Of a stretch of DNA of 64,000 nt, positions 13,152 to 25,822 are shown piece by piece. The translations under genes and the position numbers were made by a program. Source of the DNA: an uncultured Candidatus Poseidoniales archaeon. GTDB lineage: Archaea > Thermoplasmatota > Poseidoniia > Poseidoniales > Thalassarchaeaceae. Location of the stretch: assembly GCA_964585295.1 (NCBI GenBank), contig CAZPCY010000004.1:90786-154785 (forward strand). The letters are read 5' to 3'. The stretch's first letter is position 1. Each line of letters opens with the position of its first letter. The notes beneath the pieces are model-generated. The model had not been told where the DNA came from. It saw nothing but the letters and a program-made list of their open reading frames with translations, and did no database searches.

Positions 13152-13640
13152 ATGGCTGGGGGAGGCGAGGCACCTTCTGTCGAGCCGTGGGACCTCAGCG
13201 CGCTCGTCGGGGCGATCCTCCTCACTTCGACGATACTCATGCTCACTTGGCCGCCTAGCCATGATGTCGGATTGACCGGGGATCGAATCGGTCTCACCGA
13301 GGTTGGCGTGGGCGCTCTAGGTTCAGCGGATTCGATTGAGGTGACGCTTCGGAACGCCACCGCATGCGAGGTCGAGAACTCTACCTGTACAGGAGCTGTG
13401 ATACATGTTTCATCTCCTAATGGGGATGAGATTACGCAGTTCCGCCTCTCGGATGGAGAATCCCACACGACGGATAGGATGACGAACGGTCCCGTGACGG
13501 TCGAAGCCTCTGGTGAGGGCCAGTATAGAATCACGGTGAAGGTTCATCGACAACTGCCGTTGGAATTCGTTCCCGCGATGCTCGGAATCGTGCTTCTGGC
13601 ATGGGGAGAATGGCGTAGACGTCAAGGCCCATCGCCATGA
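13152..13640 (+). CDS. Hypothetical protein anchored by N- and C-terminal TM helices
   Basis: Internal ATG at 13152 chosen to avoid overlapping the Pop5 gene. TM helices LSALVGAILLTSTILML and FVPAMLGIVLLAW. Confidence 0.4.
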   Translation: MAGGGEAPSVEPWDLSALVGAILLTSTILMLTWPPSHDVGLTGDRIGLTEVGVGALGSADSIEVTLRNATACEVENSTCTGAVIHVSSPNGDEITQFRLSDGESHTTDRMTNGPVTVEASGEGQYRITVKVHRQLPLEFVPAMLGIVLLAWGEWRRRQGPSP

Positions 13641-15085
13641 TCCATATCCAGTTGGGTTTCTGAGCGAACGAACGCTGAATCCGCCACCATCAGAGCTCCC
13701 TCTTCGCTGATTCCTACCGGTCGCTCGTCAGCCTCGAATCCAAGTGAAGCGCCACCCCTAGAGAATCTCGCTGAGAAGAGGGACCACCATGCTCTCGATC
13801 TAGTGACGACATCGCTCCGCGGAAGCCTCGGGTGTGCCTCCAATCTACCCCCTAGACAGGCGGCAAGTGCAGTGAAGATGGTGTTGGCATCGGAACCAAG
13901 CCCGATATCATCGAATCCAGCCACCCGTTCTCCGTCCTGGATCCTTCCGCGACCGTTGATCCCGACTCCTAGGTCGAAGGTCGTTGATTCTCCAAATGTC
14001 CGACCCCTCAACAGGATTCCACCCAATTTTCCGACGTCTTCCACCATGATGTCGTTCGGCCATTTCAGTTGCACCCCCATTCTGGAGACTCGGATGCCTC
14101 CCGACCAAGAAAGGAGTGGAGGAACTTGCTGCAATCTCGAGGCGATTGCATCAGCGACTGCTAGCCCAGCCTCCAACTGCATACCGCCCCCACTATGCAT
14201 GATGTTACCGTCACGATTGGAGACCCTCCAGGTCGCGGTTAGATCGCCCTCCTCGCTATTCCAGATTCTTCCTCTCCTACCTTGGCCACGATCCTGCATC
14301 CTAGCGATTACGGCAGAACCTGTTGCAGCCTCATCAGGCATATCCTCCATCGTACTGGCGGAGCGTTCGAGGCGTACTGGCTCAATACGGCCCCAGCCCC
14401 GCCAAAGGGCGAGTGCTACCAACCTCTCGTCCCCGAACATGGTGCTGGCGAGAGGTCGGATCGACCACCCAGACTCGATCCACGATTCGAGGGTCGGACC
14501 CGAACGCTCCCCCAACCTATGGATGATGATCACGACTCCGTCATCCGCGAGGATGGAGGATTCTTCGATGAAGATGCGGAGCAACCCCGCCCACCCTCCT
14601 CCTTCCTCGATGTCAGTCAGGGCTCCCTCCTCAAGCGGCCCAAGCCTCTGCTCATCTAGGGTGACCGGATCCAGGTAGGGTGGGTTCCAGCATATGATGT
14701 CGAACGCACCCGGACCTGCCCACGCTCCATCATCCGATTCTTCGGCTAGACCACCTTCCCAGAAACTCGTTCTCTCCGAAACTCCCTGTTCCTCTGCTAA
14801 CCCCCTAGCCACTGCGATTGCGAGCGGGTGGACATCGCACCCATCAACATTCCAACCGCGGAGTGCGGCAGAGACTGATACCACTCCAGTTCCACAACCA
14901 ATCTCGAGCATCCTACCTGGTGGTCCACAGATTCGCATCAAGGCTAGGTCTAGAAGCGCCGAGTCCTCTCGAGGTGGATACACCGTGGGCGGTACGGAAA
15001 ACTGCCATTCCTTCCCTCGGCCATCGAACCAAATGTGTGCGGCGGCTGCCCCCCTACTCCTGGCCGCCTCTTCTTCTGCATCCAC
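13622..15085 (-). CDS. Fusion: class I SAM methyltransferase (PrmC/Mtq2-like, NPPY) plus biotin-protein ligase (BirA catalytic domain)
   Basis: N-terminal half has LEIGCGTGVVS (motif I) and ICWNPPYLD (motif IV). C-terminal half has GQGRRGRIWNSEEGDL and LKWPNDIMV, both BPL signatures. Confidence 0.7.
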   Translation of the reverse strand: MDAEEEAARSRGAAAAHIWFDGRGKEWQFSVPPTVYPPREDSALLDLALMRICGPPGRMLEIGCGTGVVSVSAALRGWNVDGCDVHPLAIAVARGLAEEQGVSERTSFWEGGLAEESDDGAWAGPGAFDIICWNPPYLDPVTLDEQRLGPLEEGALTDIEEGGGWAGLLRIFIEESSILADDGVVIIIHRLGERSGPTLESWIESGWSIRPLASTMFGDERLVALALWRGWGRIEPVRLERSASTMEDMPDEAATGSAVIARMQDRGQGRRGRIWNSEEGDLTATWRVSNRDGNIMHSGGGMQLEAGLAVADAIASRLQQVPPLLSWSGGIRVSRMGVQLKWPNDIMVEDVGKLGGILLRGRTFGESTTFDLGVGINGRGRIQDGERVAGFDDIGLGSDANTIFTALAACLGGRLEAHPRLPRSDVVTRSRAWWSLFSARFSRGGASLGFEADERPVGISEEGALMVADSAFVRSETQLDMDHGDGP

Positions 15086-15268: not shown

Positions 15269-15345
15269 GGGCCTGTAGCTCAGTCAGGTAGAGCGTCCGG
15301 CTTTTAACCGGGTGGCCGCGGGTTCGAACCCCGTCAGGCCCTCCA
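15269..15345 (+). tRNA. tRNA-Lys (anticodon TTT), CCA encoded
   Basis: Manual cloverleaf: acceptor GGGCCTG/CAGGCCC, D stem GCTC/GAGC, anticodon stem TCCGG/CCGGG with loop CTTTTAA, T arm GCGGG-TTCGAAC-CCCGT, discriminator T plus CCA. Confidence 0.9.
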
Positions 15346-15396
15346 CCTGATGAGCGAGCAGGTTCGCGGCCGCAGGGCAAGGCGGGGGCCTGCGGC

Positions 15397-15987
15397 ATGG
15401 TGGTTAAGAGTTCGACGAAGAAGCGACTGATTGAGCTTGGCGTTCCAGAGAACCACGCCCATCGTCTGGCTGACGATGCCAACATGGACGCAATCAAGCG
15501 CATGTCGGTCGAAGAAGTCTCGGAGAAGCTGGAATTAGAGATTGGAGATGAGATTCTCGAGAAGATAATGGGGATTGTTCGCGAGCAGGCCGCCTCTCGC
15601 CGACGCCGATCCCGAAGCGTTCGCATGACCATATCTTCCAGGACCGTCGACATAGACGACTTCCAGCGCGGAGAGGACAGGTTCAACGTCCTCAACCACG
15701 AATTGGTACCGCACCACGAGTTGGTTCCGATTGGAGATGAGGATGAGGTCCTCGCTCCTTGGGGCCTGACGGTTAAGGAGGACAATGGCGAGACCCGTCT
15801 TGCGAAGGAGTTGCTTCCAAAGATTGTCATCAGCGATGCTGCCGTACAGGCCATCAAGGAGATGGAGGAAGCGGAAGACGAGGAATTGCCGGCTGGCTGG
15901 CTCACCAACCGGGTAGTCCGCGTGATTCGATACAGTCAGTCAGCTGGTACCACGGTCGCGTATCGATTGGTCGTCGAGGGGCAGTGA
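15397..15987 (+). CDS. rpoH: RNA polymerase subunit H (Rpb5 C-domain homolog) with ~95-aa N-terminal extension
   Basis: Core HELVPHHELV ... LPKIVISDAAVQ ... RVVRVIRYSQSAGTTVAYRLV sits directly upstream of rpoB. The N-terminal 95 aa are extra. Confidence 0.85.
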   Translation: MVVKSSTKKRLIELGVPENHAHRLADDANMDAIKRMSVEEVSEKLELEIGDEILEKIMGIVREQAASRRRRSRSVRMTISSRTVDIDDFQRGEDRFNVLNHELVPHHELVPIGDEDEVLAPWGLTVKEDNGETRLAKELLPKIVISDAAVQAIKEMEEAEDEELPAGWLTNRVVRVIRYSQSAGTTVAYRLVVEGQ

Positions 15988-15999
15988 GGAGAGAGAAAT

Positions 16000-18900
16000 A
16001 TGCGTGAGATTATTGAATCATTCTTCCAACAGCGTAGTCTGGTCAACCATCAATTGGCCTCGTACGACGATTGCATCCCTTCAGCGGAAGGTTCGGAGGG
16101 CCGCATGGAAAGAATCGTCCAAGCGATTAGGATCGGGACTGACGAGCCGCCCGAGGACGATCTCGGCGGAATGATCAAACTCGATGTTCTCGACAAGGAG
16201 ATCACTGTCCGGATGCGAAACATCCGCCTCGGTCAACCGACGATTCGGGAAGCGAATGGGGCCGAACATCCAGCCACTCCTCTGGAGTGCCGCCTGCGCA
16301 AGTTAACCTACTACTCACCAGTCTATCTCGACTTCACGATAATCAGGGACGACCTTCCGCAACCCATTGTCGAGGAGAGCGTCCACATCGGGAACCTCCC
16401 AATCATGGTGCGTTCGCGACGATGCAATCTACACCCTACGCACATCGACCCAAATCGACATCTTTCACCTTCAACCTCACAAGAGGATTTGGATCACTAC
16501 CACCGCCTGCTGGAGAAGATGGGCGAGGACCCCCTGGATCCGGGTGGCTACTTCATCATCAACGGCACCGAGCGGGTCCTAATCTCGATGGAGGATTTGG
16601 CCCCTAACCGGGTAACGGTCGAGAAGAACCGTCGTTACACCCACGAGACCGAGGTGGCCAAGATATTCTCTCAGAAGGATGGCAGCCGTAAACCTCTGAC
16701 AGTCGAGAAGCGGCGCGATGGCATGTTGATGACGAAAATCCCGTCAGCTGGCAGCACACCCATACCAGTCGTGCTTTTGATGCGCGCTCTAGGAATCGAG
16801 AACGATCAGGACATCTTCCAGGCGATCGCCGGTCCGGTTGAATCGATGAAGTACACCGTAGCCAACATAAACGAGGTCAAGGACAATGAGGAGTACGGCG
16901 TTCACACCCAGATAGAGGCTACGCAGTGGCTGGAGAAGAAGTTCGCAGCCGGGCAGCAGAAGGAGTACCGGGAGCAGCGTATCCAGAACATGCTCGACCG
17001 CGAGTTGTTGCCCCACCTTGGCGGGGCTCCCGAGCAGCGTGAGAAGAAGGCGATCTTCCTCGGGAGAATCGTCCGACAGGTCCTCGAGATGGCGATCACC
17101 AATCGTGATCCCAACGACAAGGATCACTACGCGAACAAGCGCGTTCGGCTCGCCGGCGACCTGATGGAGGACCTCTATCGAGTCAGCATGCAGCAACTCG
17201 CTCGCGACCTGAAGTACCAACTGGAGAGGCACCACAATCGCAAGCGCGACCTGAAGATTAACAGCTGTCTACGCCCCGATGTCCTGACTTCCAAGATAAT
17301 GCATGCCTTGGCAACCGGAAATTGGGTCGGAAGTAGAAGCGGCGTGAGTCAACTGCTCGACCGAACGACCTACCTCGCAGCGTTGAGTCACATGCGTCGC
17401 GTCACGAGTCCGCTCGTGCGTAGTCAGCCACACTTTGAGGCGAGAGACCTACACCCTACCCAATGGGGTAGGCTATGCCCCAACGAGACTCCGGAGGGTC
17501 AGAACTGCGGCCTAGTCAAGAACGCCGCTCAGATGATCGATGTAAGCGAAGCCGTGCACGAGTCATCGGTCAAGGAACTGCTAATCGAAGCGGGAGTGGA
17601 TGACTCTCCTGCGGGTTGGTCCGAGGGCGCGCGTGTGCACGTTAACGGAGACATCTTCGGTCTTCACATGAATCCACACAAGTTGGTCGAGCACTTCAAG
17701 CGGCGACGACGCAGCGGCAGGATTCGATCAGAGGTAACGATTCGACACGATGTCTTGAACCGTGACATTTTCATCAACACGGATAAGGGCCGCATCCTGC
17801 GGCCGTTGCTCGTCATCGATAGCGGTTCACTCAACCTCAGCAAGGAAGTCCTTGACGGTCTTAAGAGCCGAGAGATGACCTTCACTGATCTCGTCAACCA
17901 AGGAGTCGTTGAGTGGGTCGATGCCGAGGAGGAGGAGGATCTCCTAATCGCGGCTAGACCATACGACCTCCCGTCTCGGTCGCCGAAGTTCGATCGCCCT
18001 CTTAACCCAGCGATGATCGAGTGGTTGAACCTCGGTGAGATAGACGAGGATGGCCGTCAGAGAGCAGCCAAACTCCGAGCCACCGTCATAATGCCGAACG
18101 GTGAGGAGAAGCAGGAAGATTTCGAGGTCCCGCTGAATTACTATCAGGAGGATTACGACCGACTGAAGAGACAGCAGCGCAAGAGTGGCAATGTGATGCT
18201 CTACACTCATGTTGAGATTGATCCACAACTGATTCTAGGAGTGTGCGCGAGTCTGGTCCCGTACCCGGAACACAACTCGACGCCTCGCGTAACCGGAGGA
18301 ACCGCGATGGTGAAGCAGAGCCTCGGACTTCCATCGTCGAACTACCGGCTTCGACCCGACACGCGCTTGCACAAGTTGCACTACCCGCAGCAGTCGATAG
18401 TGGGAACTCGGGCTATGGAAGCGACGAACTACCTCCGCCGCCCAGGTGGGCAGAACTTCGTCGTCGCCATCCTCAGCCATCACGGCTACAACATGCAGGA
18501 CGCGGTCATCATGAATCGCGCTTCGGTCGAGAGAGCCTTGGCTCGCTCGACCTTCGTGCGCACATACAATTCAGAGAACCGTCGCTATCCTGGTGGTCAA
18601 GAAGAGAGAATCGAGATACCTGGGACCGGACTCGATGAGGTCAAGGGACTCAAGGCCCCTGAATCCTACGCTCACTTGGAATCCGACGGATTGCCTTCGC
18701 CGGAGACCTATCTTGAGGGCGGCGAGGTTCTTGTTGGCAAGACTAGCCCACCTAGATTCCTCGAGGAGTCACATGGCGCATTCCTACAAGCCCCGGAGCG
18801 TCGCGAATCCTCGATGACCGTTCGTCATGGTGAGCGTGGCTTCGTTGACCATGTATTCGTCACCGAGAGTCTCGACTCCGGTCGCTTGGTCCGAACCACG

Positions 18901-19665
18901 CTTCGAACCAATCGGACACCTGAGTTGGGTGACAAGTTCGCAAGCCGACACGGACAGAAGGGCGTGATTGGGCGACTCGTCGCCCCGGAAGACATGCCGT
19001 TCACGGTCGATGGTGTGATTCCAGACCTACTGATCAACCCGCACGCGATCCCCAGCCGGATGACGGTCGCTCACGTCCTCGAGATGATTGGCGGCAAGGT
19101 CGGTAGCCTTGAGGCTCGCAAGATCGATGGCACCGCATTCAACGGCGAGAAGGAGGCATCTCTCCGAGAAGGGCTGACTAGGAACGGCTTCGCCCACACC
19201 GGTCGCGAAGCCATGATCAGCGGCGAGACTGGAGAGCAGTACCCCGCCGAGATCTTCGTCGGAGTCATCTACTATCAGAAGCTTCACCACATGGTCAGCG
19301 GCAAGATGCACGCTCGGAGCCGCGGTAGGGTTCAGATTCTGACGCGCCAGCCGACCGAGGGTCGAGCCCGTCAGGGCGGGCTGAGATTTGGTGAGATGGA
19401 GCGTGATTGCCTAATCGCCCACGGTGCGTCAATGGTCATCAAAGACAGGCTCCTAGACGAATCCGACGGCTGGACCCTGCAGGTCTGCGCGGGCAGCGGC
19501 CACATCGCCTACTGGGATTGGCGGAAGAGATGCTATGTCAGTCCGATACACGGCGAGAGGGCCGAGGTGTTCCCGGTCCAGACGTCGTACGCGTTCAAAC
19601 TGCTGCTGGACGAGATGAAATCGTTAGGCGTTGCCATGAGGATTGAACTGGAGGACCGAAGATGA
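16000..19665 (+). CDS. rpoB: RNA polymerase subunit B (unsplit)
   Basis: 1221 aa. Signatures include GGYFIINGTERV, RQPTEGRARQGGLRFGEMERDCLIAHGAS and SRHGQKGV. Confidence 0.95.
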   Translation: MREIIESFFQQRSLVNHQLASYDDCIPSAEGSEGRMERIVQAIRIGTDEPPEDDLGGMIKLDVLDKEITVRMRNIRLGQPTIREANGAEHPATPLECRLRKLTYYSPVYLDFTIIRDDLPQPIVEESVHIGNLPIMVRSRRCNLHPTHIDPNRHLSPSTSQEDLDHYHRLLEKMGEDPLDPGGYFIINGTERVLISMEDLAPNRVTVEKNRRYTHETEVAKIFSQKDGSRKPLTVEKRRDGMLMTKIPSAGSTPIPVVLLMRALGIENDQDIFQAIAGPVESMKYTVANINEVKDNEEYGVHTQIEATQWLEKKFAAGQQKEYREQRIQNMLDRELLPHLGGAPEQREKKAIFLGRIVRQVLEMAITNRDPNDKDHYANKRVRLAGDLMEDLYRVSMQQLARDLKYQLERHHNRKRDLKINSCLRPDVLTSKIMHALATGNWVGSRSGVSQLLDRTTYLAALSHMRRVTSPLVRSQPHFEARDLHPTQWGRLCPNETPEGQNCGLVKNAAQMIDVSEAVHESSVKELLIEAGVDDSPAGWSEGARVHVNGDIFGLHMNPHKLVEHFKRRRRSGRIRSEVTIRHDVLNRDIFINTDKGRILRPLLVIDSGSLNLSKEVLDGLKSREMTFTDLVNQGVVEWVDAEEEEDLLIAARPYDLPSRSPKFDRPLNPAMIEWLNLGEIDEDGRQRAAKLRATVIMPNGEEKQEDFEVPLNYYQEDYDRLKRQQRKSGNVMLYTHVEIDPQLILGVCASLVPYPEHNSTPRVTGGTAMVKQSLGLPSSNYRLRPDTRLHKLHYPQQSIVGTRAMEATNYLRRPGGQNFVVAILSHHGYNMQDAVIMNRASVERALARSTFVRTYNSENRRYPGGQEERIEIPGTGLDEVKGLKAPESYAHLESDGLPSPETYLEGGEVLVGKTSPPRFLEESHGAFLQAPERRESSMTVRHGERGFVDHVFVTESLDSGRLVRTTLRTNRTPELGDKFASRHGQKGVIGRLVAPEDMPFTVDGVIPDLLINPHAIPSRMTVAHVLEMIGGKVGSLEARKIDGTAFNGEKEASLREGLTRNGFAHTGREAMISGETGEQYPAEIFVGVIYYQKLHHMVSGKMHARSRGRVQILTRQPTEGRARQGGLRFGEMERDCLIAHGASMVIKDRLLDESDGWTLQVCAGSGHIAYWDWRKRCYVSPIHGERAEVFPVQTSYAFKLLLDEMKSLGVAMRIELEDRR

Positions 19666-22600
19666 ATCATTTGAATCATAGAGATGTTGCGAAGATTCCG
19701 AAGAGAATCGGTTCAATCAAGTTCAGCCTGATGGATCCGAATGAGATCCGGAAGATGAGCGCGGTCGAGGTAAAGACAGCTGACACCTACAAGGACGACG
19801 GACACGCCTTCCGCCAAGGTCTGATGGACCCTAAGATGGGAGTTATCGACCCAGGAATCCGCTGTGAGACTTGCGGCAACAAGCACGAGGAGTGCCCGAG
19901 CCACTTCGGTCACATACAACTCGAACTGCCGGTCATTCACATCGGATTTGCCCAGTTGATCAAGAGGTCACTGAAGTCGACCTGCAACGAGTGCAGTAGA
20001 ATCCTCCTGCATGACAAGAAAGGAACCCACCCTCACGATCCTGAGAAGTCCGAACAGGACCACTACCGCGACCGCGTGTTGGATGTGAAGCAGAAGCACG
20101 GCGTTGGCGGTAGCCAGTTCAAGAAGATGATCAAGGACATCGAGAAGGAGTGCAGCAGCGCGAAGCGTGCAATTTGCATGCACTGCGGTAACGAACAGGG
20201 TAAGATAATCCTTGACAAGCCGACCACCTTCAAGGAGAAGAAGGCGGACAAGGGTGAGCACAAGCTGAATCCCCGTGACATTAGGGAATGGCTGGAGAGG
20301 ATTCCAGACAGCGACTTGATTTTCCTAGGTATGGAATCACAATCGAGCCGGCCCGAATGGATCATCATGAAGGTCCTGCCGGTACCGCCAATCACGGTCC
20401 GACCCTCGATAACCTTGGACAGTGGCGATCGGTCTGAGGACGATTTGACCCACAAGTTGGTCGACGTCCTGAGGATCAACCAGCGCTTGCGGGAGAATCG
20501 CGATTCGGGGGCCCCCCAACTAATCGTCGAGGACCTCTGGGAGTTGCTCCAATACCACATCACCACCTATTTCGACAACCAGACCAGCGGCATCCCGCCG
20601 GCTAGGCACAGATCAGGTAGAACCCTGAAGACGCTGACTCAGAGGTTGAAGGGCAAGGAGGGTCGATTCCGCAGCAACTTGTCAGGCAAGCGAGTGAACT
20701 TCTGCGCCCGCACCGTCATCAGTCCCGATCCGAATCTCGGCATCAACGAGGTGGGTGTACCGGTTCCGACGGCCAAGGAACTGACCGTGCCAATCAGAGT
20801 GACTGGAAGGAACCGAGAGCAGATGAGGCAGATGATTCTGAGAGGTCCCGATTACCACCCTGGAGTCAATTACATCGTCCGCGGCGACAACTTCAGAGTC
20901 AGAATTACCGATCGCACGAAGTACATCTGGGCCGGATTCCGATGTCTGAATGGAGAGTGCCACTGCGGTTCCGACGAGGAACCGTACAATGGCCACAGAC
21001 CCGATCTGAACACCGTTCTTCCTGCACCGAACTTCCTTCCCGGGTTGGAACTAGGGGTCGAGAAGCGACGGCTGATGGATGGCACCGAGGAGGAGTCGTT
21101 CGTAGTCGATCTAGAGGGTACGCTGCGCAACCTCCGTGGCGAGGACGAGAAGGGAGTTTTGCTTCCGGATGGCGATCGACGAGCCTTGATTCATCAGCGT
21201 TGGGTCTGGGAGCGAGAGAATCCGCAAGAAGACTACCCAGAGGAACTCGATGTCTACTGTCCACATTGCGGATCTCCGCAGACCGAAGAGGGCTTCAGAA
21301 CCCTATGCGAGGATCGCCTGTCCACAGTCGACATCGATGGAAACCCGAAGCCAGGGATGGTCGTGGAGCGCCACCTCATCGATGGTGATGTTGCGATCTT
21401 CAACCGGCAGCCTTCGCTGCACCGGATGTCTATGTTGGTCCACGAAGTTCGGGTGATGCCAGGCAAGACCTTCCGATTCAATCTCGCTGACTGCACGCCA
21501 TACAATGCGGACTTCGATGGAGACGAGATGAATCTGCACGTCATCCAGTCTGAGGAGGCGAGGGCGGAAGCGAAGATACTGATGCGAGTCCAAGAGCACA
21601 TCATCACGCCCCGCTACGGTGGAAGCGTCATCGGTGGAATCCATGACCACATCTCAGGAGCTTTCCTACTGACCCACGGCGAACGCATCATCCCGAAGCG
21701 GATCGCGCTTGAGGTTCTAGGTGCCATCGGATGGGATGGCGAACTGCCGAAGGAGACGACGAAGGGTGGCCAGACCGGCTATCTCGGATGCGATATTCTC
21801 AGCCTGATTGTTCCCGGGGGATTCAATCTCCAATACACGAGCCGATCGAACGTTGACGTCAATATCTCTGGTGGAAATGTCAGTGGCACTATCGACAAGC
21901 GTGGTGTGGGCGCGGAAGACGGTCGTCTGCTGGATGCTGTGGTCCAGACCCACGGCACCACCGAGGGGGCGAAGTTCCTGAATCGGATGACCAAGATGAC
22001 GATTGCCATCTGTACGTCCCTCGGATTCACCACCGGTATCGATGATGAGGATCTGCCGCCGGAGGCAAGGGCCGAGATCAGGAGCATCAACGCCAAGGCT
22101 AGCGATGAGGTCGACGAGGAACTCCGAAAGTTCGGCAAGGACGGATCGAAGTACGAGACCAGACCCGGGCGTACTCCATTAGAGACGCTCGAGGAGAACA
22201 TTCTGGGCATATTGGATCGTTGCAAGTCCGGTACCGGTGATGTGGCGAAGAGCCACCTTGGAGAAGACAACGCCGCGGTCGTGATGGCGGTATCAGGAGC
22301 TCGCGGTTCGATGGACAACCTAGCGATGATGGCGGGATCCATAGGTCAGCCAAAGGTGCGTGGAAAGCGACTCGAGAGAGGCTACCACGAGCGCGTTTTG
22401 ACCCACTTCCCGAGGCAGGCGAAGGGGGCTGAGGAGAAGGGCTTCGTCGGTTCGTCGTTCAAGCGTGGATTGGAGCCGACCGAGTTCTTCATGCTCTCCG
22501 TCTCCGGGCGCGAGTCTCTGGTCGACACTGCAGTGAGGACCGCGAAGTCGGGTTACATGCAGCGACGACTGATCAACGCGATGGACGACCTGAAGGTGTG

Positions 22601-22748
22601 GAGCGACGAGCCGGCTTCGGTTCGGAACACGGCTAACAGGATCATCCAGTTCCACTATGGAGAGGACGGGGTCGATCCCTGCCGGTCCAAGCATGGAGCT
22701 CCGCTGGACGTCGATCGAATTCTGGAAGATGTGTTGGGGGGTGCTTGA
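19662..22748 (+). CDS. rpoA1: RNA polymerase subunit A'
   Basis: ATGA overlap with rpoB. Zn motif [17 protein letters not shown]; catalytic [13 protein letters not shown]; [12 protein letters not shown]. Confidence 0.95.
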
Positions 22749-22749
22749 G

Positions 22750-24324
22750 ATGACGGTCAAGAGCGCGACGAAGAAGAAGCTCATGGACATGGGTATAGAG
22801 GAGAGTTACGCCCACGCCCTTGCAGATGATCGGAAGTGGGACGATGTCAAGGTCCTGAGTTCCGGAGAGATTGCCAAGATCTGTGGGCTCGACTCGCAAG
22901 CTGGTGAGAAGATTCACACCCTAATCTCACAGACCGGCCGCCGTAGCCGAGACGATAGCCCTAAGGCGGAGACAATCAGGGTTCGCAGACGCGCTGCGCC
23001 AAGGCGATCCCGTTCGATAACCGCTCAACCTCTGCAGGAATACGACCTTGAGAACAAGATGACTCAGATTGGTCGCGATGTCGCGACCGACGACCCTCTG
23101 TACAAGAAGGTGAGTGAGGCTACGAAAGAGCATGGTTTGATGCTAAGCCCGAGGATGATCGATGACATCGTAGAGGGTCTCCGAGAGAGGGGCGTCAAAA
23201 GGCTCACTCCAAAGCGTCTGGAGGCACTCTTGAAGAGCACGGAGAACGAGTTGCAGCGCAGCCGCGTAGATCCCTTCGAAGCTATCGGTATCACCACGGC
23301 CCAGTCGATAGGAGAACCGGGGACACAGATGACGATGCGGACTTTCCACTACGCAGGTGTGGCGACTGTGAACGTCACTCAAGGTCTACCGCGCATCATC
23401 GAGATCGTCGATGCACGCAAGAAGCCTAACACTCCTACCATGCGGGTCTACCTGAATTCCGAGGACGGGAAGGGGAAGCCGCTTCGAACGGATGAGAAGA
23501 AGGTGCAGGCTATCGCCGCTTCCTTGGAGACGACGACCACGCAGGACATCGCTGACATCGATGTCAATGTCGCCCAGAGGTACATCTCTCTCAACCTGAA
23601 TCGACGCCATCTCAAGTTGAAGGGAATGAGTGGTGCGGAGGTCAGAGACAAACTCCAGCGGGCGCTCCGACTGTTCATCCAAGCAGACAACGACAAGAAT
23701 CCCAAGACGCTTCAGATAGTCCCAGGTGTGACCAAGGAGGAGGACCTTGCTGACCTAGCTGGGAATCCGCCAACCTACACCGATCTTCTGCAACTTGAGG
23801 AGAAGACGAAGAAACTGCGGTTGAAGGGTGTCAAGGACATCTCGCGGGCGAATGTTCAGGGGCCGGCACAGGACACCGGAGAGTACTACATCGCCACCAT
23901 CGGCAGCAATCTCGCCAAGGTTAGTGAGTTCGCGGGCGTCGACCGCGCTCGGACCTACACGAACAACATCATGGAGATCCACAAGTACCTCGGAGTTGAG
24001 GCGGCTAGACAGGCGATTATCAACGAGATGATTCTGACTCTGGAGGGCGCCGGGCTAGAGGTGGACGTACGTCACCTGCTGACGGTTGCGGATGTGATGA
24101 CGAGCGAGGGTGAAGTGCGGGCCATCGGCCGGCATGGAGTCAGCGGCAACAAGCACAGCATACTGGCTAGAGCTGCATTCGAGGTCACAGTGAACCACCT
24201 TCTGCGTGCCGGAGTGATTGGCGAGAAGGATCATCTGACCGGTGTGGCGGAGAACATCATCGTCGGTCAGCCGGTCGCGCTCGGCACCGGCAGTGTCGAG
24301 TTGTACTACGTGCCGAACGAGTGA
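22750..24324 (+). CDS. rpoA2: RNA polymerase subunit A'' with ~130-aa N-terminal extension
   Basis: ATG lies 2 nt after the rpoA1 stop. Core [17 protein letters not shown] and [18 protein letters not shown]. The listed ORF start at 22657 overlaps rpoA1 and is unlikely. Confidence 0.9.
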
Positions 24325-24364: not shown

Positions 24365-24664
24365 ATGGACATCGGAAAGGAATTGAAGAACGCGATGAGC
24401 AGTGGTACGCTGCTGTTTGGCATGAAGCAGAGCGTCAAGGCGTGTGCCAATGGCGATGCTAGGATGGTTATTCTAGCGGCTAACTGCCCTCGGGATCACA
24501 TCGAAGCGATTCGGAGCCGCCATCCAGATGTTCCTCTCCATCAGGCGATTCTGGTGAATCGGGAACTCGGTGCGGCTTGTGCTAGACCTTTCCCGGTGTC
24601 TTCCATCTGCGTCGTTGACGCAGGATCCTCGGACTTGCTGACATTGCGACCTAATGTGGACTGA
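24365..24664 (+). CDS. rpl30e: Ribosomal protein L30e
   Basis: 99 aa in the conserved position after rpoA2. GTLLFGMKQSVKACANGDARMVILAANCP matches the L30e pattern. Confidence 0.75.
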   Translation: MDIGKELKNAMSSGTLLFGMKQSVKACANGDARMVILAANCPRDHIEAIRSRHPDVPLHQAILVNRELGAACARPFPVSSICVVDAGSSDLLTLRPNVD

Positions 24665-24697
24665 TGATCATCGTCGAACGGCGGTATTCAATACCGG

Positions 24698-25822
24698 TTG
24701 CGCTTGCTCGCTTCCCGCATGGACGATTTGATTCGCGGATTGCTGGAGCAACGAGGGGCGACCCTCGTTCCAGCAGATGATGCGATTGGCACCGCCCGCA
24801 TCAGGTGTCTAGGACGCCTCCTCGAGCCACCCATTGGGATGGTCGACGAGCCAGCCGTCGTGGATGCGCATGTATGGCATGCAGCGGATGGTTGGTCGCC
24901 TCTCGACCGGATTGAAATCGAACGCTGGATGGTGGACGCTCCTTCCGGCAGCCATTGGCTGCTCTCGGAACGGGCCATAGAGAGGGTTGGCAGAATGCCT
25001 GAGAGGGATGATTTGAGATTAACCATCTGGGACCCGAGGCGCCTCGCCGGCTGGATTGGCGAAGCGGTCCTAGCCGGCGACCTATCCGCCTCTCCGACAG
25101 GTTTCGTCGAGCCTGATTCCCAGCTGAAGGGTACACTGATGCCCGAATCTCCCCAACCGGAATCGGGGAATGGATTCATCCAAGAACTCCATCCCTCGAA
25201 ATCATCTGCGCCTACCGATTTGGAGCATTCCAATTTCTCTGGGACCTCTCTTCGTAGTGATTCAAATGCTTCTAACTCGGATGGTGTGCCAATCGAGGCA
25301 CTCCGGCCCACCGTCGACATCGATAGCTGGCTCGAACGACATGGATGGGGTTCCATCCAAACGACACCAGTACTGCTGCCGGCCAGGATTTGGCATGTCA
25401 GTGGGATATTGAGAGGTCCGGAGGAGGCAGCGGAGCGCCGATGGTGGCGCATCCTCGAGGATCCAATCGCTGAGCGGGTCGTCAGAATCGATGATGCCGA
25501 GATCCTGCCGAGCATTCCAAGGCTGGTCGTCATCGACGATGTGCGTTGGATCGGTCGTGATGGAGTTAGGCTTCATCTGCCGGGCCTGTGTGAGGTCAGG
25601 AGGCAATGGGCAGATGACCCAGCATCCGGATCGAGGTTGCTGCACTGGTGGCGCTTGGACCCTTCATCATGCGAGATGCGGTCCAGTCGTTCTTTGCTCC
25701 CAGCATGGATCGTCAAGATTCCGTTCGAGGGCCCCCACCTGCTGCACGGCTTGGTGGGGGAACTGTTCCAAGCCCCTCCTTCTATCTCTCAAGAACTGAT
25801 TCATCCGACCGTTGAGCGGTGA
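24698..25822 (+). CDS. Hypothetical protein
   Basis: 374-aa ORF co-directional with the RNAP/L30e cluster. Its composition looks protein-like, unlike the S/R-rich antisense ORF 24688-25533. No motif recognised. Confidence 0.45.
   Translation: MRLLASRMDDLIRGLLEQRGATLVPADDAIGTARIRCLGRLLEPPIGMVDEPAVVDAHVWHAADGWSPLDRIEIERWMVDAPSGSHWLLSERAIERVGRMPERDDLRLTIWDPRRLAGWIGEAVLAGDLSASPTGFVEPDSQLKGTLMPESPQPESGNGFIQELHPSKSSAPTDLEHSNFSGTSLRSDSNASNSDGVPIEALRPTVDIDSWLERHGWGSIQTTPVLLPARIWHVSGILRGPEEAAERRWWRILEDPIAERVVRIDDAEILPSIPRLVVIDDVRWIGRDGVRLHLPGLCEVRRQWADDPASGSRLLHWWRLDPSSCEMRSSRSLLPAWIVKIPFEGPHLLHGLVGELFQAPPSISQELIHPTVER

Follow-up and report, generated by a model that had tools for sequence, protein, structure and literature searches.

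We report that the subunits RpoH and RpoA'' of an archaeal RNA polymerase, encoded in 64,000 nucleotides of an uncultured Candidatus Poseidoniales archaeon (contig CAZPCY010000004.1; hereafter the window, with positions counted from its first letter), begin with related copies of a small N-terminal domain, here called the module, and that the same module heads a range of otherwise unrelated proteins. Whereas the canonical parts of RpoH and A'' are ordinary, the add-on is a lineage-specific accessory module on a multisubunit RNA polymerase, and we hold its anatomy and its evolutionary conservation, with high confidence, to be secure. What the module does can be stated far less firmly. The two genes and their parts are as follows.

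15397-15987, + strand: rpoH, 196 aa (list of open reading frames, ORFs)
15397-15588, + strand: RpoH N-terminal module, residues 1-64, H-type, MVVKSSTKKRLIELGV..AHRLADDANMDAIKRM.. (module hidden Markov model (HMM), E=2e-29; AlphaFold2 (AF2))
15589-15681, + strand: predicted Arg/Ser-rich disordered tether of RpoH, residues 65-95, SRRRRSRSVRMTISSRT... (composition; predicted local distance difference test (pLDDT) in AF2)
15682-15987, + strand: RpoH Rpb5_C core, residues 96-196, and stop codon (Pfam PF01191, E=8.2e-13; alignment to 1hmj)
22750-24324, + strand: rpoA'', 524 aa (ORF list)
22750-22941, + strand: RpoA'' N-terminal module, residues 1-64, A''-type (module HMM, E=1e-34; 120/120 orthologues)
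22942-23109, + strand: RpoA'' tether, Ser/Thr/Ala-rich and then Arg-rich, residues 65-120 (outside the solved A'' chains and Pfam; conserved basic composition)
23110-24324, + strand: canonical RpoA'' body (Rpb1 domain 5, trigger loop, jaw) and stop codon (Pfam PF04998, E=5e-46; solved Rpo1C chains, E=1.6e-83)

Both subunits are longer at their N-termini than their solved counterparts. The Pfam family PF01191 (RNA_pol_Rpb5_C) covers only residues 96-192 of RpoH (48.4 bits against a cutoff of 23.5), and residues 3-75 of the solved M. jannaschii subunit H (1hmj, 78 aa) align to RpoH 98-194, leaving about 95 N-terminal residues as a surplus over the canonical form. That form consists of the assembly domain only, in about 75-90 aa without an N-terminal extension, and the 196-aa RpoH departs from it. 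Canonical archaeal RpoH/Rpo5 is without the N-terminal jaw of Rpb5 (PMC2675907), and one passage of a further account describes archaeal RpoH as 'without any N-terminal extensions' (PMC3906176). A preliminary description of this DNA had let the conserved core of the 196-aa protein start at about residue 96 and had equated archaeal RpoH with the C-terminal domain of Rpb5 alone; the Pfam match and the 1hmj alignment agree with the first statement, and the solved 78-aa protein, which aligns without an extension, bears out the second. In RpoA'', PF04998 (RNA_pol_Rpb1_5) matches with 157.6 bits, the solved Rpo1C chains cover residues 121-523 (E=1.6e-83), and residues 11-25 of the solved archaeal A'' chains (391-397 aa) align to residues 121-136, so that here about 110 N-terminal residues are surplus. 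Neither extension has a counterpart in the solved RpoH or in the solved A'' chains. Compared with M. jannaschii subunit H, the RpoH core itself (window 15682-15984) has two insertions, of about 11 and 13 residues, around EDNGETRLAKE and EEAEDEELPAGWL, both of which are kept in orthologues.

The two N-termini are clearly similar to each other. BLASTP aligned them with 28/73 identical residues (38%), 63% positives and E=6e-13, and the module, of about 62 aa, begins at the first residue in both proteins. An HMM built from 23 family members, searched against the six-frame translation of the window, returned the A'' copy (E=1e-34) and the RpoH copy (E=2e-29) only, the next match having E=3.8; the window thus holds no further copy that this search detects. 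The paralogy that had been proposed for the two N-termini is thereby backed by a statistically significant alignment, and we conclude that they are diverged paralogues, an H-type and an A''-type. The alignment had also been described as free of gaps over about 60 aa, which is correct for about the first 47 residues; beyond them, the shared EKI and RRSR line up once two short gaps are introduced. Behind each module follows the Arg-rich linker noted earlier, and its R-rich composition is kept in orthologues (R 16-18%, K 7-11% across RpoH and A''), with R69, R71, R76 and T78 invariant among RpoH orthologues. Since residues 69-112 have a pLDDT of about 30 in the AF2 model of full-length RpoH, the Arg/Ser-rich linkers, of about 30-50 aa, are predicted to be disordered tethers that join the modules to the subunit bodies. 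The interval 15397-15681, singled out in the preliminary description, corresponds to RpoH residues 1-95 and hence to module plus linker.

We then considered whether the extensions are translated and conserved. In a pattern search with one genome per GTDB species, 392 stretches were confirmed by tblastn, all named records among them being Poseidoniales, Thalassarchaeaceae or 'marine group II' metagenome-assembled genomes, and 80 loci were kept. In 72 H-type and 6 divergent copies among these loci, module and Rpb5_C core shared one ORF; complete RpoH ORFs were 194-205 aa long and started exactly at M-x-VKS, while five ORFs were cut by contig ends. For the 58 RpoH genes of exactly 195 aa, which start with ATG (38), TTG (15) or GTG (5), nucleotide diversity at codon positions 1, 2 and 3 was 0.224/0.119/0.560 in the module, 0.338/0.274/0.649 in the linker and 0.287/0.181/0.612 in the core. 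In codons 2-15, positions 1 and 2 were invariant or nearly so save for synonymous R/L changes, the other exception being the variation of the start codon among ATG, GTG and TTG, whereas position 3 was free to vary. This codon-position pattern reveals purifying selection at the level of the protein, to which the module is subject no less strongly than the Rpb5_C core. That the 5' coding sequence is conserved as RNA or DNA is ruled out, as third codon positions vary freely.

A survey of the best 120 RpoH and the best 120 A'' homologues gave the same picture. The module was present in 115/120 RpoH homologues, whose lengths were 184-196 aa save for a few gene calls shortened to 112-179 aa, and in 120/120 A'' homologues (522-545 aa), at residue 1 in 118 of them; in NCBI and JGI these proteins are named subunit H and A'', and the canonical domain is their sole Pfam annotation. 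For A'', the longest ORF in the window begins at 22657, yet it overlaps rpoA', and the ATG at 22750 lies one base past the rpoA' TGA. An annotation artefact, with real starts further downstream and with extensions that would be untranslated 5' sequence or ORFs prolonged by chance, could draw on public RpoH gene calls that begin at internal Met codons (134-138 aa, 112-113 aa) and on numerous short database matches that seem frameshifted past the linker, but its probability is negligible, given that some 75 species share frame, length and start position, that diversity at third positions exceeds that at positions 1 and 2 by a factor of 2.5-5, that all 120 A'' orthologues have the module, that the A'' ATG directly follows the rpoA' stop codon, and that the short matches are contig-end fragments with a translated Nextera adapter or assembly errors. 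A downstream start is therefore ruled out by the conserved ORF, start codon and codon-position pattern; the possibility of untranslated extensions, which the preliminary description had itself named as grounds for refutation, falls away, and the length survey that it had called for shows the extension retained across the order Poseidoniales. Both copies were fixed before the radiation of this order.

The short matches deserve a comment. Several public metagenome proteins (P0002, P0004, P0010, P0029, P0043 and others) end in LSLIHI, VSYTHLTLPT or CLLYTSPSPRD, endings that we read as translated Nextera adapter at contig ends and that produce false C-termini mimicking gene truncations. In our first profile search, match length was apparently bounded at about 1.75 times the query length. 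A free-standing small module protein or a split gene in relatives was rejected as an explanation, the 47-129-aa matches being adapter-bearing fragments or assembly errors.

To what family does the module belong? No Pfam family matched the RpoH or the A'' module at E<=10, RNA_pol_Rpb5_N included; across the two modules and 23 family members there was no Pfam match to HhH (helix-hairpin-helix: HHH, HHH_2, HHH_5 and related), SAM (SAM_1/SAM_2) or RNA_pol_A_CTD, and a profile search of PDB sequences returned nothing relevant. In the absence of profile matches, membership by sequence in the HhH, SAM, alpha-CTD or Rpb5_N families was ruled out. The AF2 model computed from the family alignment is confident (mean pLDDT 81.5) and predicts five helices (residues 6-14, 18-26, 30-35, 38-45 and 52-63), residues 6-26 and 38-63 being spaced like helix-hairpin-helix motifs, and within the full-length RpoH model the module has a pLDDT of 80-86. 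In Foldseek searches of the PDB, the best matches agreed among themselves: they were SARM1 SAM domains (query-normalised TM-score, TMq, 0.72; root-mean-square deviation 2.4 A; prob 0.99; E=0.41), and (HhH)2 domains of FANCM/FAAP24, the UvrC C-terminus, the RadA N-terminus, NusA and Topo V followed with TMq 0.5-0.7; FANCM/FAAP24, UvrC and RadA reached 0.57-0.70, though with E-values of 1.1-3.4. Against BFVD nothing was significant, a Marseillevirus SAM protein having TMq 0.65. The (HhH)2 domain is also found in XPF/ERCC1, alongside UvrC, FANCM/FAAP24, RadA/Rad51, the NusA AR and the Topo V repeats. The predicted five-helix topology resembles that of (HhH)2 and SARM1 SAM domains (TMq 0.5-0.72), from which the module differs in that it has no similarity to them at the level of sequence profiles.

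The module has a signature of its own. M1, V3, K4, S5, T7, K8, K9, L11, A21, H22, L24, A25, D31 and K34 are invariant and E18, D26 and D27 nearly so; G15 is the sole nearly invariant glycine, and the hairpins are without the canonical G-h-G. The resulting KS-TKK / AH-LADD / D--K signature is unique to the family. Taken together, these results make the module a new family without a Pfam entry and give moderate support to its SAM/(HhH)2-like predicted fold. Of its earlier designation as 'HhH-like', the predicted five-helix SAM/(HhH)2-like fold is what can be kept, as opposed to HhH membership, for which there is no profile match and only Foldseek E-values above 0.4. The parallel drawn with the bacterial alpha-CTD was not borne out in sequence or structure, this domain having no Pfam match to the module and being absent from the 50 Foldseek PDB matches listed.

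The module turned out not to be confined to polymerase subunits. An exhaustive module HMM search of 1.84 billion representative proteins gave 209 matches only, nearly all at residues ~1-62 of the protein. Carriers other than RpoH and A'' fall into at least 12 multi-member families and about 15 singleton families, at least 25 families altogether, the C-terminal parts of which are mutually unrelated. Among them are a TFB-like protein consisting of the module and one TFIIB cyclin repeat (P0172; E=1e-5), a protein with zinc fingers, the module at residues 93-148 and an AAA_15/AAA_21 ATPase (P0206), a protein in which the module is followed by an A''-like Arg linker and a MORN repeat (P0145), and a module-headed protein of 1292 aa on a virus-like contig (P0168; L082 1884-5762) that has no Pfam or PHROG match. 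The last of these contains a motif, SGTNAAHVAGVGLDFKFPVIYG, that by eye resembles the phospho-histidine swivel domain of PEP-utilising enzymes. Many carriers match HMM positions 1-40/45 only, and 39/43 non-polymerase carriers are nearer to the A'' type, with a mean of 24 of the first 35 residues equal to the A'' consensus.

The carrier contexts that we retrieved are co-directional runs of ORFans, one of them from a 116-kb contig. Recognisable genes beside the carriers encode a HerA/terminase-like ATPase (phrog_2666), a polynucleotide kinase, a Holliday junction endonuclease, a DUF3846 protein, an HRDC protein and a TFB, and by this gene content the carrier contigs look like archaeal viruses or mobile elements, which we infer to be viruses of Poseidoniales. 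The locus of the P0206 ATPase (L090), on the other hand, has a cellular, defence-like appearance. On one virus- or mobile element-like contig, a complete TFB (L088 7074-8027; zinc ribbon and cyclin; phrog_20431) accompanies a module-headed 337-aa protein; it is about 27-29% identical to TFBs of the Sulfolobales viruses YNP1/YNP2 and of Halorubrum tailed viruses. In a scan of IMG/VR, none of 62 pattern matches was confirmed, in a confirmation step that used the H-type sequence, and tblastn against INPHARED gave no module match. The module is a promiscuous N-terminal domain and not RNA polymerase-specific. The preliminary description had suggested that the lineage added a duplicated nucleic-acid-binding module to two jaw-side subunits: the add-on is real, paralogous and conserved, but as a polymerase-specific duplication the idea is untenable, because the module also heads TFB-like, AAA ATPase and MORN proteins and dozens of ORFans.

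What might the module do on the polymerase? By analogy with other enzymes, we tentatively favour a role as an arm on a flexible tether that contacts DNA or recruits partners next to the lower jaw, to which we would give slightly less than an even chance. In the architecture of Pol II, the Rpb1 region that corresponds to the N-terminus of A'' immediately precedes the trigger loop and belongs, together with Rpb5, to the 'shelf' module. The missing Rpb5 jaw (about the first 130 residues) leaves, in archaeal Rpo5/RpoH, a positively charged groove by the downstream DNA channel, and this groove is filled by Rpo13 in Sulfolobales, by the Rpb5 jaw in eukaryotes and by a beta' insertion in Thermus (PMC2675907). 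Where RpoH has no Rpb5 jaw and the groove would be left open, the two tethered modules could act as flexible arms on the jaw/shelf side of the polymerase that contact double-stranded DNA or recruit partners, and the invariant Lys-rich N-terminal arm (VKS-TKK-) and the Arg-rich linkers would be parts of these arms. On other carriers, the domain may be a generic DNA- or chromatin-targeting head; the carriers tied to DNA or transcription that we count for this reading are P0172, with its TFIIB cyclin repeat, and P0206, with zinc finger and ATPase. The resemblance to the eukaryotic Rpb5 jaw, crenarchaeal Rpo13 and bacterial alpha-CTD would be one of function, not of ancestry.

The three systems compare with the module in different ways. 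The bacterial alpha-CTD is a small domain of the SAM-like/HhH class that is present in two copies per enzyme, is held by a flexible linker and contacts DNA and regulators. Like it, the module is a small domain (pLDDT 80-86) that is predicted to be flexibly tethered, by about 40 residues of pLDDT ~30, to a polymerase subunit, although this is a functional analogy only: the alpha-CTD sits at the C-terminus of alpha, which is the homologue of archaeal Rpo3/D and not of H or A''. The Rpb5 jaw, which in Pol II touches downstream DNA and general factors (PMC2675907), is likewise an extra domain N-terminal to the Rpb5_C/RpoH assembly domain and is absent from canonical archaeal RpoH. It comprises, however, about 130 residues packed directly on the assembly domain, as opposed to a predicted helical bundle of 62 residues held by about 30 disordered ones; the two do not match in sequence, and the Foldseek structural matches listed include no Rpb5 chain. 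The origin of the module is independent of the Rpb5 jaw. Rpo13 may be the best functional analogue. According to passages in two papers, it is a helical (helix-turn-helix, HTH) module of Sulfolobales/Desulfurococcales with basic, Lys-rich flexible tails that occupies the groove beside Rpo5/RpoH, near downstream DNA (PMC2675907; PMC3479171). Going by this description, both are lineage-specific small helical modules with flexible basic parts, but Rpo13 is a separate 104-residue subunit with a three-helix HTH and is restricted to Crenarchaeota, whereas the module is a predicted five-helix bundle fused to a subunit.

Several points weigh against an arm that contacts DNA. A residue count puts the net charge of the folded module at about -4 for the H-type and about 0 for the A''-type, and an acidic to neutral domain would be an uncommon DNA binder; positive charge is found in the N-terminal arm and the linker. 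The HhH, SAM and alpha-CTD profiles do not match the module, SAM-like folds serve protein-protein contacts at least as often, and the fold class is moderately supported, there being no Foldseek match in the PDB with E<0.4. The many virus-like carriers that keep only positions 1-40/45 fit a docking peptide as well as they fit half of a DNA-binding domain. Finally, the proximity of both N-termini to downstream DNA is transferred from published descriptions of Rpo5/Rpb5 and may differ in this enzyme.

The main alternative, which we consider rather unlikely, is that the module is a homotypic docking domain and chiefly serves pairing between proteins, as many SAM and (HhH)2 domains do. The H-type and A''-type copies would pair with each other, or each would be a landing pad on the polymerase, and other module-headed proteins (ORFans of viruses or mobile elements, the TFB-like protein without a zinc ribbon, the ATPase) would dock onto the host enzyme; virus-borne copies would then redirect or inhibit host transcription by mimicry. 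Its top structural matches oligomerise (SARM1 SAM) or heterodimerise (the (HhH)2 pair FANCM-FAAP24). The invariant residues mostly form a polar surface (K4, S5, T7, K8, K9, H22, D26, D27, D31 and K34), which suggests one specific conserved partner, and the core of the module is not basic. In P0172, the module stands in the place of the N-terminal, polymerase-binding part of a TFB-like protein. The distribution can be read in the same sense: 39/43 non-polymerase carriers are nearer to the host A'' type and, outside the module, are unrelated in sequence, and carriers lie on virus- or mobile element-like contigs together with the HerA/terminase-like ATPase, the viral-type TFB, the Holliday junction endonuclease and ORFan runs. 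Promiscuous DNA-binding heads such as HTH and ribbon-helix-helix domains are, however, common on viral proteins and would yield the same distribution, and since no module was confirmed in IMG/VR or INPHARED, the viral nature and the host of the carrier contigs are deduced from gene content. In a more specific form, which we rate as slightly more doubtful again, the H-type and A''-type modules would form a landing platform, and viruses or mobile elements would time and again have acquired residues 1 to 35-60 of the host's A'' module and put them on dozens of unrelated effectors. If true, the captured-module effectors would plug into the host polymerase, a modular, mimicry-based way of hijacking or regulating transcription in an uncultured archaeon that is among the most abundant in the ocean. 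The available data do not separate docking from the DNA-contacting arms that we favour.

Improbable, in our view, is a role in RNA contact, in which the SAM-like domain and the Arg-rich linker would bind nascent or structured RNA and couple the polymerase to RNA handling. The SAM-like fold seen with Foldseek would allow it, RNA binding is known for SAM domains of the Vts1/Smaug type, and Arg/Ser-rich linkers resemble RS-like and arginine-rich RNA-binding motifs, but no RNA-binding SAM family matches by sequence, and published structures place both RpoH and the N-terminus of A'' at the jaw/shelf side, distant from the RNA exit channel (PMC2675907).

The genes that encode the two subunits lie in a classical archaeal RNA polymerase gene order, tRNA-Lys(UUU), rpoH, rpoB, rpoA', rpoA'', rpl30e, the remaining members of which are listed here.

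15269-15345, + strand: tRNA-Lys(UUU) (ARAGORN)
16000-19665, + strand: rpoB, unsplit, 1221 aa (ORF list; assigned by operon position and sequence)
19662-22748, + strand: rpoA', 1028 aa (phmmer against solved Rpo1N chains, E=3e-284)
24365-24664, + strand: ribosomal protein L30e, rpl30e (Pfam PF01248, E=4e-14)

The rpoH start codon lies 51 nt 3' of the end of tRNA-Lys(UUU), the spacer is GC-rich, and by eye no obvious TATA-like element was seen between the tRNA gene and rpoH (window 15269-15396); rpoH may be co-transcribed with the tRNA. RpoA' (1028 aa, compared with 880-910 aa in solved archaeal Rpo1N chains) is lengthened by an insertion (residues 423-564, about 140 aa; window 20928-21353) that falls between P. 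furiosus Rpo1N residues 401 and 409. It carries CxxxxCxC and CPHC motifs with a weak zinc-ribbon Pfam match (E=0.008), presumably lies near the Rpb1 dock region, and is a second lineage-specific addition to this polymerase. The final recognisable gene of the rpoH-B-A'-A'' cluster is rpl30e, the place after which is occupied by nusA in many archaea. Directly 3' of it, we found a 374-aa ORF that starts with TTG and matches no Pfam family (window 24698-25822, + strand), overlapped on the opposite strand by a 281-aa ORF (24688-25533, - strand); either may be spurious. In a 487-aa ORF further upstream (window 13622-15085, - strand), a small-methyltransferase domain (MTS/Methyltransf_25) at the N-terminus is joined to a biotin/lipoate protein ligase domain (BPL_LplA_LipB), which is an unusual fusion.

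We found no paper in which such an extension is connected with Poseidoniales, RpoH or A'', and the module constitutes a previously undescribed domain family shared by the polymerase and apparent mobile elements of the same lineage. Archaeal RpoH is the textbook subunit with the Rpb5 assembly domain only, and the extension departs from that picture, adding a further case of multisubunit RNA polymerases gaining accessory modules. Were the modules to occupy the groove, Poseidoniales would be its fourth independent filling, after eukaryotes, Sulfolobales and Thermus, and an unusual one, with the same domain duplicated onto two subunits on what are predicted to be disordered basic tethers. The family is a marker of marine group II and of its apparent viruses or mobile elements, so that the module may allow orphan viral contigs to be assigned by sequence to an uncultured host, and it gives a concrete opening for testing how a dominant ocean archaeon organises its transcription or has it subverted.

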